Below the pieces are notes generated by a model. The model saw only the letters and a program-made list of their open reading frames with translations, was not told the origin of the DNA and did not search any database. A program made the position numbers and the translations under genes. A stretch of DNA of 64,000 bases from Squalus acanthias (lineage: Eukaryota): contig CM059431.1 of NCBI GenBank assembly GCA_030390025.1, forward strand, positions 127,226,001 through 127,290,000, given 5' to 3'. Positions 9,047 through 56,990 of the stretch are shown here, one piece after another; position 1 is the stretch's first letter; each line of letters begins with the position of its first letter.

Positions 9047-9437
9047 TGATGCGGAGATGCCGGTGTTGGACTGGGGTGGACAAAAGTGAGAAGTCGCACA
9101 ACAACAGGTTATAGTCCAACAGATTTATTTGAAATCACAAGCTTTCGGAGCGCTGCTCCTTCATCAGGGAAAGTGAAGAAATACATATGGGCACAGCATA
9201 AATAGTCAGAGAACAATGCTAGACGACTACAGTTAATCTTTCTAACTGACCTTTATCACAGTGTGATAAAGGGCAGTTAGAAAGATTAACTGTAGTCGTC
9301 TGGCATTGTTCTCTGACTATTTATGCTGCGCCCATATGTATTTCTTCACTTCACCTGACGAAGGAGCAGCGCTCCGAAAGCTTGTGATTTCAAATAAAGC
9401 TGTTGGACTATAACCTGGTGTTGTGCGACTTCTCACT
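9047..9437. mobile_element. Non-autonomous Penelope-like fold-back insertion with 12-bp TSD
   Basis: TSD tatctccaacaa at 9035-9046 and 9438-9449. Inverted arms of 177 bp (9084-9260 / 9262-9438), each with a hammerhead core. Confidence 0.85.
9351..9387 (+). ncRNA. Minimal type I hammerhead ribozyme (Penelope-type)
   Basis: tcac-CTGACGA-a-ggagc(agc)gctcc-GAAA-gc-TT-gtga. Stem I tcac/gtga, stem II 5 bp, palindromic stem III AAGCTT. Mirror copy on the minus strand at ~9135-9171. Confidence 0.8.
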
Positions 9438-11939
9438 TATCTCCAACAAGCGAGAGTCTAACCACCTCCCCTTGACATTCAATGGCATTACCATCGCCGA
9501 ATCCCCCACTATCAACATCCTGGGGGTCACCATTAACCAGAAACTTAACTGGACCAGCCACATAAATACTGTGGCAACAAGAGCATGTCAGAGGCTAGGT
9601 ATTCTGTGGCGAGTGTCTCACCTCCTGACTCCCCAAAGCCTTTCCACCATCTACAAGGCACAAGTAAGGAGTGTAATGGAATACTCTCCACTTGCCTGGA
9701 TGAGTGCAGCTCCAGCAACACTCAAGAAGCTCGACACCATCCAGGACAAAGCAGCCCGCTTGATTGGCACCCCATCCACCACCTTAAACATTCACTCCCT
9801 CCACCACCGGTGTACCGTGGCTGCAGTGTGTACCATCGCCAAGATGCACTGCAGCAACTCACCAAGGCTTCTTCGGCAGCACCTCCCAAACCCGCGACCT
9901 CTTCCACCTAGAAGGACAAGGGCAGCAGGAGCATGGGAACACCACCAGCTCCAAGTTCCCCTCCAAGTCACACACCATCCTGACTTAGAAGTATGTCGCC
10001 GATCCTTCATCGTCGCTGGGTCAAAATCCTGGAACTCCCTCCCTAACAGCACTGTGGGAGTACCATCACCACTCGGACTGCAGCGGTTCAAGAAGGCGGC
10101 TCACCACCACCTTCTCAAGGGCAACTAGGGGTGGGCAATAAATGCTGGCCTTGCCAGTGACGCCCAGATCCCATAAACGAATAAAAAAATTTAAAAAATA
10201 TGGGGTTGCCTTGATTGCCACATGTGCGCAATCGATGACACCCTGCACCTGTGGGAAGCCAGCCAGAGCTGCAAAGCCGAGCGCCCGCTCAGTAACACTG
10301 GCGTCATCAGTGGCAAAGTTGATATAATTAGCTGACTTGTGAAACATGGCCTCGATCACCTGGGTGATGCATGTGTGGGCGGCCGACTGCAAGATGCCGC
10401 TAATGTCCACTGCAGATCACTGGGAGGAGCCTGAGGCAAAGAAGTTGAGTGCGTTGGTGACTTTGACAGCCACTGGTCAGGCATATCCACCTGCTCCTCT
10501 GGGCTGCAGGTCTTGCTCGAGCAATGTGCAAATGTCTGCGATGGCCTGGCGCGATAGCCTGAGCCTCCTTTTGCACTGCTGCTCAGTCATGTTGAGGAAG
10601 CTCATCCTCTGCCTGTATACCCTGTGTTGGGGGTATCACCTCCGGCGCGGTGCAGCCCTGCGCTGATGCCCTCTGTCCTGTGCAGCATCAGGTGTTTGAG
10701 GAGAAGGTGGTGGTGTTGTTATTGGTGCTGCTGGTGTGCCTGCTGCTGCTGGTGTTGGGGCTCATCGTGGTCCCATTGTGAGGACCAAGGTGACACAGTA
10801 TAAATGGCACCCATGCTGATGGAATAGATGGCAGGTCAAGTAGAGATCAGAGGAGCAAGCTGTCAATGGTGTGATAGGTTGTAACAATGAGGTGAGACTA
10901 GATGGCAACTTTGCTGGATACACTTGCAGCCTGTAGAAAGCTCAATGTGTGCTGGGAATGCAGCCAGCAACAGCTTCTGCCTGATGAAAATGACCAGCTG
11001 TGAGGTGGGAGGTTTTATAATACATTTCATGCTGTCACCTAATCAGCTGGAGCAATGGCCACTCAACTCCCGTCTCAGGCTGACAGTCGAGGTTCCCGAG
11101 CTGCGTGAATCCCGTGGGCAGCCAGGGAAATTCGAGAGGTAGGCTGAAAACGGCTCTTAGGGGTCTGACAACTACCTGTTAATGATTTGAATTAGGTCGC
11201 CTGCCTCTGCCAATCGGGTCGCTGCCTCACCGGCAAACGTGCCCAAGGGAAAGGCGTGTGGGGGCAGGATGATGGCGGGTTACCGACCCGCTGCAACTTT
11301 TTTCAAATTTCTCTTCTGACCCGCCTCCAATCGCACCCGCGCGGACCCCAGAAAATTCTGGCCATTGTGTGTGCTGTCAACAAATCTGCACAATCATATT
11401 ATGATCCTTACACATAAGCTGGACATTGACAGAGTACAATTCCATCCTATTCATATCGGTGGCACTCTTCTGCAGAACAGCACAAAGGCCAACACGTGTG
11501 CACGCCATCGACCAATCCTTGGATCCTTACCCACGGGTAAAAAGCCAAGTATCTGCCATGTTCTATAACATCTCCTGGGTTCTATAAAGAAGGTAATGTA
11601 TTAGCTAGCTCTGGCAAACAATGCAGTTTTTAATATTCTGAAAGGTTTGTGTCAAAAAATAATTATTTTTGTCTCAGATTTAGTATGTTATTGGGTTCTT
11701 TGATTCTTTTATGCTACATAACTGGTTAAAAGCAGCTTCACTGAAATATAACTCACTGTGATAGTTTTTAAATATGTGTTTGATTGCCACCTTTTTTGAA
11801 TTAAAGAGACAGTTATTTAAATCTGTTTGATTCTGTCTTGTTCTCTCTTGTTCTGTCTGAAGACTTTGAAGGGAGATAGACTGGATCACTTCTGTAGATG
11901 GTGAGAAAAAGAAAGGGGATCGGGAGAACCCCTGCAGAA

Positions 11940-53358: not shown

Positions 53359-56300
53359 GGGCCTTGACTGTAGGCCAGTTTTCGGCAAGTGAGTTTTGGT
53401 TTCAGTTTAAAACTCATCCGTTGCATCCAATAACAAACATATTTTAACTCCCGGGTCTCATGATAATCTCACCGGCACATTTCCCAGTGAACTGGCTGAT
53501 CAGATGGGAAACCTGGAGACAATCTCCAGGGCAAAATTTCCAGCTGATCAGCCAGAGGCCTATTTAAAGCAGGAATGCCCTTCTTCTAGAGAGGTTGCAC
53601 TCCCTGGTAGCTTATTTTATTTGCAAGCTGCTTCAACAAGAATCTTCTAAAAAATGGGTAGGATGTAGGTGCCAAGGTTCTCAGAAGCCTCCCTGGCGGT
53701 GCTTGTGGAAGAGGAGGGCGAGGAGGGAATTCCTGTTCCCCATCAGTGCCAGGAGAGCTGCCAATCACATGTTGTCCACCAGCCATGGAGAGAGATTGAA
53801 TAGGTCGTCAGCACCTTCAGGACCTGGATATAGTGCAGGAAGTGCTTCAATGAGCTCACTAGAGTAGCAAGGGTCAGATATGCTCGTCATTTATTCCTCT
53901 CGATCTATAACACATAGCAGCAGTCCTTCACCCCGCCCCCAGCACTGTCAACGACTCCCTTTCCTCGATCACTTCCGTCACCACCTAACACAAGGCCACA
54001 CAGCACCACCTCTCATTCTGATTACAAATGCATTCACCTCTTCATTGTTCATTTCTCAGCAGCCATTAGCAGAATTCGCCACTCACTTGCTAGCCTTTGC
54101 TCAATTACCAATTTCTCTCATAGCTCCTTCCTCATGTCACACTTGTTTCCCATTCATCACTTTCACATCCTGCTTGCATCTTGCTTCTCTTCCCTCTCAG
54201 CATATGCAGTACCAGTACAAGCCCCACACATCTGCATTCTCTTTTTTAGTAGCCACTCACTAACTCTCAGCCTCTTTTTCTGCAGGACAAAATGGCACAC
54301 CATAGTGAGAGGAGCAAGACTGGGGAAGGACCAGCGAACCACATGATCCTGAATGAACTGGAGTAACAAGCCTTGGAAATTGTGGGTCTGCTGTAGCTGT
54401 GCAGATTAGGTATTTCAAGGTGGGGGCTTCACTGAACAGGGTTTCTGACAATTACTTGTACCCCTTCATTAAGCAAAGGAAAGACAAACTTTCAGCCAGC
54501 TTGACTACATCAAATGACATTGTGATACATATCTTCTGCAACTGTGCAACCTCCCAATGCCATCCTAAATCTTGTCCCTTTTTTCTTTTGTTTAAGTCCT
54601 TCCTACTAGCCACAGCCCATTGAAGAAGACACCTAAAATGGAGGAGAATCTTTCTGAGGAGGAACCATGTGATCTTTCACTTCCAAGCACAAGCATAGAG
54701 ATTGGCACCGTGCCTGGGTAAGAGAGTGATCTAGAACGGTCTGCACCTAGTGATGCACCTAGTACTAGTGCACAGAAGTGTAAGGGGTTCGCGTGGCTCT
54801 GTGCTTAGCCTGGGTGCTAGTGCGGGGTTAGGCCTTGTTGCCTGTTCTGGTCTCCAGCCAGCCTGGTAACACTAGACACCTGTGAGTGGTTCGACCCACT
54901 CGCCCTTACGGTTCTGACACTGGACTTAGGTGCGAGAGCAATAATGCAGAGAAAACTCAGGTAGACCCGGTTGAATAGTGCGAAATGGAAAATCTTTATT
55001 GCATATTATTCAAGATTACGAAATACATGTCATAAGCACAGATTAATGACAATACAAACTTACATACATTTATGCAACTAGGTTTAGGGAAACGAGGAGC
55101 GCACGACACATCGTAAAAGGGGACACACATTATAATTATCCTTAAAACAGAAACCCTCCCCTATCAATACCTGTCCTAATCTAGATCTGTAGGATCGAGA
55201 CTCATGCTCACCACTCATGATAACTCGGAGAATTCCGAAACGCTGCTCGGATGTTTTCACCACAGCACCTGACTATTCACGTGTTGATCAGGGGTCCCTG
55301 TACCCCACTTGTTTACTCGCTTTCCTCCGGCTAGCAGGCTGGACCGTCTGCTGTCATGAAGATCTGTGTTGACCTCGGAACTCTGATAAAACTCAAAGAA
55401 GAGTCTTCCTGGACCGGCACCAGTTGTCGGTAGAACTCGAAGAAAAGTCTTCCATGGCCAGTTGTGGAGTATCCGATAGAATTCGAAGAAGTGGTTAATC
55501 GATTTTCGGGCGCGGTCGGGGTTTACTGACCGCGGCGGCACATGTAGTCATCTTCTTCTCTTCTCATCTCATCTCATCTCATCTCCTCTCGGGACCTTCG
55601 GTTCCAACACCGTTTACCGACTTCTTGGGATGGTGCGCCCGCTTACCGGCCTTCGCAGACCAGCTCTCCACAGATCTTCGCGGCAAGCCACGAGGTTGAC
55701 TCCCGGAAAATCAGCGGATCAGAGAATACGAGTCAAGAGTTCTCGAGCGAGTCAAAGGAATAAGAGAAAGATGGACGTTTGGACACTACAGTTATAGTAC
55801 TGTAATTCCTTATCTCCCGCCCAATCTTAATGTCCATCTTTTGTCATGTTTTGGCGCTCAAACTTCTTGTATGGGGTGGTACTTGTCGTTAATGGGTTTC
55901 GGTGATACTTGTAACTGTCTGAGTACCCGTTAATATTTCTCCCCTTGTGGAACCGGCTAAGAGTCTCCCTGGAGGGGTTTTGGGGGCCTCCGAATTCTTG
56001 CTGTGAGTACCCGCGAACGGCTCTCTCATCGTAGAGCCGTGGGGAATTTGCGTATCAATGTCTTTTGGATGGGCCCTTAATTGCCCAGTACAATAGCTCT
56101 CATTTGTGCATGGAAAACCCGATTCCAGCACTTATATTCCTTGCTTGGGTGTTAAAATGCAAAACGATCTCGTCTTGTCTTATCTCAATATGCTGAGTCC
56201 TGTCCGATCTTGCTGAAATGTTTATTGAAACGCCATCTTGTCTGCCTGCTGAAAATCTAGAATCTTCTGCCACGAGGCGTGGTGGCCATTTTACAGGCTG

Positions 56301-56990
56301 TTTGTGTCCGTTTTGAAACCTGACAGCATTTTGCTGAAATAAAGCTGTGTTTACGAAACTGTATGTCTCTTTCTCATTATTTTTTAAATCGCGATAATTT
56401 GCGAATTCTACAGAAGCAGGTAGTGGTGGCAAGGATAGCTCATGAGGCAGCACACCGTGGGCGAGATCCTTTCCCAGCTCTGCTCAGGAGGACAGAATGC
56501 AGACTTCAGGAGCCCAGCAATGAGAGGAAAACTATTTGTTTCACATAAGCAGTCGTACGCAGTATTGTAAGTCCTGTCAAGGTATTTCGACACCATGGCT
56601 GAAAGTCTGATTCCAGCCTGAGTGGTATCATCTCACATGGCATCAGCACTCTGCAGTCTACCTTAGAGAATGCGGCCCACTCCAGGGATGCTGCAGCCAG
56701 GCCCTCACAACAAGAGGCTATGTTAGCATGCCTTGCAGCTTTGATTTAAATGGCTGCCATGCAGACTCTGGGCTCAAACATTGGATAGACTGACATCCAG
56801 ATTGGAGACACTGGTGGAGCAAGTGGGTAGGGGCTTTCAAGGAGTCACTTACCTTCTGCACTCTACCCTCCTGCAGATCGTGGAAGTGATGAGCTCTAGT
56901 CCCATGAGTGTGGCAGTGATGCAGCGGAAGTGACACATGTTGTCCTCTCTCAGGATATCAACACGTTTGTCCTCTTGCCACCTGCTCAAT
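53359..56990 (+). mobile_element. Degraded Harbinger (Myb-like gene side) interrupted by solo LTR-B
   Basis: PRFSE.SLAVL...RARREFLFP exon-1 relic at ~53660-53870. Homologous to ~45630-46860 in inverse orientation. Boundaries approximate. Confidence 0.65.
54779..56412 (-). mobile_element. Solo LTR-B (1634 bp), architecturally related to LTR-A
   Basis: Termini TGTA...TACA with 4-bp TSD gaag (54775-54778, 56413-56416). Minus-strand TATA (~55793) and AATAAA (~54995). Shares the right end tttgcgaa..ctaca with LTR-A. Confidence 0.8.

Follow-up and report, generated by a model that had tools for sequence, protein, structure and literature searches.

The window, a stretch of 64,000 nucleotides of contig CM059431.1 of Squalus acanthias, carries a solo LTR with TG..CA ends between the two copies of a 4-bp target-site duplication (Table 1), and from base 2 of this element inwards the four stems described by the original prediction can be read directly from the sequence. 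In full-length copies of the family, the primer-binding site adjoins the end corresponding to 54779 and gag, pol and env are read away from that end, so that the Pol II direction is the minus strand of the window, as had been proposed. As the AATAAA signal is situated about 86 nt upstream on this genomic strand, in 30 of 30 LTR loci, and the primer-binding site beside the folded end, the fold lies in U5, also in agreement with the earlier suggestion and relative to a presumed cleavage site.

Table 1. Features of the solo LTR and of the fold at its U5 end (window coordinates; the strand is that of the window, a dot standing for none)
Feature	Position	Strand	Basis or remark
Solo LTR of lokiretrovirus-like element, 1,634 bp	54779..56412	- (genomic/Pol II sense)	TG..CA ends, paired full-length copies
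Left 4-bp target-site duplication	54775..54778	.	sequence
Right 4-bp target-site duplication	56413..56416	.	sequence
Closing stem, LTR-end strand (3' strand on genomic RNA)	54780..54786	-	followed after 5-6 nt by the primer-binding site in full-length copies
Closing stem, inner strand	54903..54909	-	folding, pair tables
Small variable arm (D-like arm of the original prediction)	54795..54810	-	loop of 6 or 8 nt; other subfamilies lack it or have a different arm
Long arm, 54813-54822/54870-54880 around 47 nt	54813..54880	-	pairing registers shifted by subfamily; absent in family C
Conserved hairpin (T-like arm of the original prediction), holds GTTCGACCC; loop 54890-54895	54884..54901	-	folding, copies
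Adjacent conserved motif	54910..54926	.	hairpin with G-T wobbles on plus strand only
A-box-like 11-mer	54794..54804	+	7/9 positions; chance-level, not conserved
7-nt site complementary (genomic RNA) to nt 52-58, T arm, of tRNA-Arg(TCG)	54888..54894	-	reads as a B box on the plus strand
Poly(A) signal AATAAA	54995..55000	-	upstream of the fold on genomic RNA; kept in 30/30 LTR loci read
Candidate Pol II promoter: CCAAT box, GC box, TATA-like word	55792..55825	-	conserved in LTR loci

The element, its family and its primer

A genome search returned 6,582 candidates, among them at least 40 near-full-length LTR copies of 92-100% identity, and the conserved hairpin, searched with its loop left free, has 12,921 matches in the 3.7-Gb genome as opposed to 10 for a control. 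Paired LTRs are spaced by 11-15 kb; the identity within three such pairs (96.3-99.0%) and the ratio of observed to expected CpG (LTR 0.88, whole window 0.40) indicate a young family. Between the paired LTRs, all on the window's minus strand, are encoded gag with a zinc knuckle, pol with reverse transcriptase (RT), a degenerate and a second RNase H (PF17919/PF17917, then PF00075) and integrase, and env. The nearest named RT relatives, taken as labels of nearest matches and not from a tree, are frog and coelacanth 'NYNRIN-like' proteins with 52-54% identity, while an RT search of the same genome for distant families yielded 146 scored matches, all of them 98-100% identical. No Pfam match, direct matches to PF00523 included, and no PDB match was obtained for env, the first match of which in a protein-model atlas is a Fusion_gly cluster (score 0.93, 203/256 features). 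By these sequence features, the element fits a young, high-copy, lokiretrovirus-like retrovirus.

Among 30 LTR loci, the words of the candidate promoter are retained almost throughout (CCAAT 30/30, GC box 28/30, TATA word 30/30), and conservation extends to a second TATA word, at element position 356. With the CCAAT/GC/TATA cluster as promoter, the stretch 55000-55795 would make up an R of about 800 nt, which would contain many upstream ATGs; the leader holds 5 to 17 of them depending on the start site chosen, and 0 in its last 225 nt. Diversity along 30 LTR copies is lowest of 17 bins in bin 101-200, a weak signal as the value (0.013) is near that of others (0.017). A scan for bacterial promoters and terminators gave 0 matches and is irrelevant to this element. 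The 17 sequencing runs considered consist of contigs throughout, and four of them, from four organisms, match the family along the LTR at 80% likeness; they carry no strand, ends or level and their RNA origin is a guess, and they were not taken as evidence of expression.

In two of three junctions compared, the primer site beside the folded end is identical to the 3'-terminal 15 nt of a tRNA-Arg(TCG) gene of this genome, the third junction having a mismatch; four junctions from subfamilies B and D and from family C agree over the same length with a second tRNA-Arg(TCG) gene. One gene accordingly fits the window's subfamily (A) and the other B, D and C, with the same primer type displayed by the single one of 20 family C copies that shows a junction. 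Judged by these matches, the family is primed by tRNA-Arg(TCG).

LTR end and primer site are separated by 5 nt in the junctions L005, L007, L014, L017, L029 and L030 and in ten junctions of B and D, and by 4 nt in family C; the usual gap is 2 nt. The start of the primer site is overlapped by an ATG in good context and in frame with gag, which is the first ATG, 5 nt after the LTR end and closing stem, in 6/6 A junctions and recurs in 10/10 B/D junctions; family C is without it and has its first ATG 45 nt after the LTR. Sequence resembling tRNA-Arg(TCG) is also present in tandem arrays with a spacing of about 1.6 kb on four contigs (C603, C394, C247 and C26 of G000; L149), where an insertion follows the anticodon and the T loop is altered, and is not called by ARAGORN.

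A conserved fold at the U5 end

Folded as minus-strand RNA, the interval 54779-54910 has the cloverleaf as its minimum-energy structure, with pair probabilities of 0.94-1.0 for the four helices. The plus strand as RNA forms the closing stem and the hairpin, with probabilities of 0.01 for the D-like arm and 0.05-0.08 for the long arm, and as single-stranded DNA it folds all four helices (0.78-0.99, z -2.0). In a shuffle test of the RNAs, z was -2.9 for the minus strand (1/200 shuffles) and -2.2 for the plus strand (8/200), values which are inflated since the ends of the interval were picked by the stem; the plus strand of the full interval of the original prediction has a z of -1.09. Among 31 sliding windows along the minus strand of the LTR, z fell below -3 in two, the one with the fold and the one at 651-780.

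Of 59 short loci fetched from the genome, 52 had the hairpin and both stem ends, four without the exact end were dropped and three lacked the anchor, two of which were restored as family C copies while one was removed as a chance match. Together with the window copy, the retained loci represent 47 distinct variants, 45 of them long, which are related to each other and were each compared with 30 shuffles, with ends chosen by the stem and pair tables derived from fixed offsets in a script. The z-score was below -2 for the genomic strand in 47/47 variants versus 35/47 for the other strand, and the lower z and the lower ensemble diversity were each on the genomic strand in 38/47. A closing stem probability above 0.9 was reached in 47/47 variants, and the long arm was part of the centroid structure in 45/45 long variants on the genomic strand versus 21/45 on the other. 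The hairpin alone, at the same cutoff of 0.9, is slightly stabler on the plus strand (42/47 variants versus 39/47 on the genomic strand), where in 20/47 variants an inner pair is a G-T that corresponds to a mismatch on genomic RNA. A cloverleaf on the antisense strand, as in the original prediction, is not supported, with the genomic strand folding better in 38 of 47 variants.

From stem end to stem end, the fold measures 118 to 165 nt in subfamilies A, B and D; across families, as inner arms are gained and lost, the total varies between 42 and 165 nt, and the closing stem and the TTCGA hairpin alone persist. The D-like arm changes its loop size or is replaced or lost between subfamilies, and subfamily B possesses an additional arm. 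Most distant is family C, the Gag of which is 40% identical over 237 residues and the LTR start of which is otherwise unalignable (best E 0.84); its fold is reduced to 42 nt, made up of the hairpin and a closing stem of 5 bp, both of which show two-sided changes, and 14 nt of the hairpin core are identical between the otherwise unalignable LTRs. The word GTTCGA, lying in a loop that was free in the query, is kept in 97 of the first 100 listed matches, followed by CC in 59, AT in 36, AC in 1 and CT in 1, as well as in 18/20 family C copies. In the 45 long variants, invariance of the stems is partly given by construction, because the search patterns fixed both hairpin strands and both stem ends. 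Across the collected copies the stems are conserved and structured, where a lack of conservation would have counted against the original prediction; the fold is a genuine, conserved RNA fold, beyond chance as a fold, and most likely acts on the genomic RNA, that is the minus strand, beside the arginine-tRNA primer site.

Just inside the U5 end, the stretch 54787-54812 and its homologous positions are hypervariable, with unrelated hairpins in the different subfamilies, one of which repeats the 8 nt that precede the conserved hairpin. One copy (L002, G000:C3:48646518-48648957) bears two tandem extra copies of the first 402 nt, on the U5 side, before a full LTR.

The likeness to tRNA on which the cloverleaf had been named is loose. 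Transfer RNAs have a T stem of 5 bp with a T loop of 7 nt, a GG in the D loop, an anticodon arm and a CCA end, whereas the T-like hairpin has 6 bp and a loop of 6 nt, or 5 bp and 8 nt in variants, the D-like loop is without GG, anticodon arm and CCA are absent, and in their place the third arm encloses an insert of 47 nt. ARAGORN detected 0 tRNA genes and Rfam 0 matches in the window. The fold is probably not a separately made tRNA mimic; of the proposed tRNA mimic in U5 there remains, in weakened form, a genomic-RNA loop that resembles an anticodon or is complementary to the T arm.

Proposed docking of the primer T arm and other readings of the fold

With a probability of roughly 0.5, the fold is a U5 primer-initiation domain, and its apparent B box would mirror a stretch of U5 that is complementary to the primer's T arm. 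In the minus-strand transcript, a 7-bp stem would close U5 directly before the primer-binding site and the fixed hairpin would stack coaxially on this stem, with dispensable arms in any number looping out between the two. In retroviral priming, the last 18 nt of the tRNA anneal and the T arm is freed (PMC11181671); tRNA-Arg(TCG), annealed in the same way, could then pair by its freed T arm with the 7-nt site in the loop and 3' strand of the hairpin, which may help to select or activate the primer for reverse transcription. Stem and hairpin would thereby hold the loop within reach of the T arm while the inner arms vary. Seen in reverse on the plus strand, a T-arm complement resembles both a T arm and a B box, which would account for their having been recognized at this place, and in this solo LTR, which has no primer site, the fold would be a relic.

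On genomic RNA, the invariant letters are the exact complement of nt 52-58 of the primer, the only perfect site in the LTR, and the hairpin is the best partner of the T arm of the window's primer gene in the whole LTR (-15.5 versus -10.8 kcal/mol for the next, that is 4.7 better). With this gene, the duplex extends to 11 bp with one bulge, and at most 5/100 shuffles match it in 45/47 variants. With the second primer gene, the cognate of B, D and C, which shares nt 52-58, the duplex is 7 bp long and was equalled by 74/200 shuffles for B and 15/200 for D, not above chance, and by 7/200 for C, a borderline value. The extension consequently does not follow the primer and the match does not covary with it, and the argument for docking is one of position, conservation and precedent and not of a primer-specific match. 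Moreover, the 7-nt core is common to tRNA T arms and therefore fits a B box or a T loop equally. In the window's subfamily, opening of the hairpin costs 9.2 kcal/mol compared with -10.9 to -13.2 kcal/mol gained. The somewhat higher stability of the hairpin on the plus strand speaks against docking, as does the adjacent motif, which pairs on that strand only.

Four tRNA fragments were tried, three of which gave nothing: pairing of the primer 5' end under the D-like arm, an 8-nt match, beat shuffles in 1/47 variants, pairing of the anticodon arm in 0/47 and pairing of the whole free part of the tRNA in 2/47. A 5-mer for tRNA nt 52-56 occurs three times round the closing stem, at 54786-54790, 54888-54892 and 54910-54914, and once elsewhere on the same LTR strand; the three near the stem are possibly alternative docking sites.

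Other roles on the genomic RNA are, even taken together, less probable than docking. A dimerization or packaging signal, in which the loop palindrome would mediate a kissing contact between two genomic RNAs, is an unlikely one of these: in subfamily B and family C the loop is a perfect 6-nt palindrome (self-duplex -5.1 kcal/mol), the fold prefers the genomic strand, and as gag starts almost at the primer site, with the first ATG close behind the LTR in all six A junctions and also in family C, U5 would have to carry such a signal, but the commonest loop (59 of the first 100 listed matches and the window's own) keeps only a 4-bp core with -3.7 kcal/mol, and the invariant letters extend past the palindrome. 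Mimicry of the anticodon, as by the tRNA-like element of HIV-1 (PMC5113203, PMC11181671), appears slightly less probable. The genomic-strand loop in the four hairpins examined, from all families, does read UCG followed by AA, the triplet being the anticodon of the primer; its length, however, is 6 or 8 nt and not 7, the base before the triplet is G and not U in the window's subfamily, and UCG needs no second cause, as it is unavoidable in any complement of a T loop. It is also improbable that the fold is a translation element that would carry ribosomes over the many AUGs of a long leader to gag, through internal entry or shunting, for which the in-frame ATG at the start of the primer site and the 5 to 17 upstream ATGs could be adduced; family C, without that ATG and with nearly all arms missing, nevertheless keeps the core.

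Readings on the other strand or as DNA have the B-box core as their common ground. This core, kept in 97 of the first 100 listed matches, varies between subfamilies in two letters which fall on free positions of the box, and an A-box-like word is located at +16 in the window's subfamily. With Pol III cassettes known from LTRs of foamy viruses (PMC3993851) and TRIMp3 elements (PMC10886601), a B-box-only TFIIIC site, with an insulator or integration-related role, or a plus-strand Pol III gene could be envisaged, and would on sequence grounds be hardly probable. The A-box-like 11-mer matches the A-box consensus at 7/9 positions, a score reached by 110/200 shuffles, and across 47 variants the best score is 7/9 in 34 and 6/9 in 11, with no room for the box in 2 of family C, so that it is absent or cannot be placed in 13/47. 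A run of four Ts as a terminator was not found within 170 nt past the fold in 30/30 LTR loci, the first such run being at position 476 of the element in the window copy and at 304 at the earliest among the 30 loci. With an A box at chance level, lost in whole subfamilies, and no terminator, the fold has the hallmarks of neither a tRNA nor a Pol III gene, and a Pol III gene on the plus strand is disfavoured; the pairing of A and B box in the original prediction thus stands in its B-box half only and the proposed LTR-borne Pol III RNA is not upheld. A DNA site for TFIIIC, on the other hand, would need no covarying stems. Even less probable is a mimic of the top half of a tRNA on antisense RNA or minus-strand strong-stop DNA, in which closing stem and hairpin would make up a stack of 13-14 bp capped by the T-loop-like TTCGA. 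All four helices do fold on the plus strand as single-stranded DNA, the G-T wobbles of the hairpin and the neighbouring motif point to that strand, and a two-sided change in one subfamily lengthens the stem to a contiguous 8+5 stack; yet the loop size is unlike that of a T loop, the GG of a D loop is absent, folding as DNA is weak and less well defined (mean z -2.2, 26/47 below -2) and the plus strand of family C prefers another fold. Least of all is it to be expected that the fold merely shields or displays the attachment end for integrase, or is in part accidental, with a T-arm match by chance: a 7-nt match to some tRNA part is to be expected in a U5 of 190 nt (by rough arithmetic about 0.6), and the match to the second primer gene is not significant, but the 14-nt identical hairpin core between otherwise unalignable LTRs speaks against such an origin. 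Finally, the plus-strand wobble pairs and the changes at free positions of the B box allow the stem-plus-TTCGA core to serve both strands, in primer docking on genomic RNA and as tRNA top half or B box on antisense RNA or strong-stop DNA. This dual use has a slim chance only and, if true, would mean that some 13,000 loci of the genome give rise to a small processed RNA or serve as a TFIIIC site.

Comparison with known systems

A structured U5 with a primer-complementary site is of an already known kind. Pairing between U5 and the TpsiC arm has been proposed in avian sarcoma virus (Aiyar 1992 and Morris 2002, as cited in PMC3185550), and HIV-1 has a primer activation signal (PAS) of 8 nt, itself disputed (PMC3185550), which is sequestered in a stem, the opening of which raises priming, and has been reported across retroviruses (PMC11181671). 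With both, as they are portrayed in these two sources, the present element would share a short T-arm-complementary U5 site upstream of the primer site and within a stem-loop, and an LTR end paired in a stem. It differs from them by its primer, tRNA-Arg(TCG), and by a site covering nt 52-58, known here from sequence and folding; by the placement of this site, which occupies the loop and the 3' strand of a hairpin, with the stem beneath that hairpin enclosing 40-160 nt of U5; and by inner arms gained and lost as modules, while the extension of the site does not follow the primer. The tRNA-like element of HIV-1 described in PMC5113203 is similarly a U5 hairpin near the primer site with the primer's anticodon triplet in its loop, but the present primer is Arg and not Lys, the loop has 6 or 8 nt, and the likeness is one of sequence only.

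B-box-like words in LTRs are also found in the Pol III miRNA cassettes of foamy viruses and BLV (PMC3993851) and in the TRIMp3 elements Helenus and Cassandra (PMC10886601). The foamy virus cassettes need A box, B box and a terminator (PMC3993851), and Helenus LTRs conserve both boxes (PMC10886601). Unlike those, with their A and B boxes and, in foamy virus, T-run terminators, the fold has a chance-level A box and no terminator, and the element is of an autonomous type of 11-17 kb.

Lokiretroviruses were delimited by a dual RNase H in pol (a tether and a new domain), an Env similar to the F protein of Mononegavirales (PF00523) and an RT clade sister to other retroviruses (PMC7947760). Common to them and the present element are gag-pol-env between LTRs and a degenerate and a second RNase H, and protein-model features suggest a candidate F-like env here, whereas cartilaginous fishes are not among the hosts in the text of that paper (PMC7947760). 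Its main text contains no mention of 'tRNA' or 'primer binding', and in the published consensus file the 7-mer is present at at least 31 places, none visibly in U5 among the 30 listed, with line breaks that may hide matches. In the open-licence literature, no description of this fold in lokiretroviruses was found. If docking is right, U5 T-arm pairing of the avian sarcoma virus and HIV-1 kind would extend to a group that has been placed as the sister of all remaining retroviruses, and the size range of 42 to 165 nt found in nature would delimit the smallest working core with no need for mutants. An apparent 'B box' antisense to a U5 can be nothing more than a primer-complementary site.

Two separate proviral copies (L032 and L033) contain a related transposon, which we take to be Harbinger-like, between env and the 3' LTR and opposite to the proviral sense, with nuclease and Myb-like frames. 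Elsewhere in the window, at 9077-9445, a 184-nt inverted repeat of 95% identity with 1 nt between its arms lies inside a LINE reverse-transcriptase frame.
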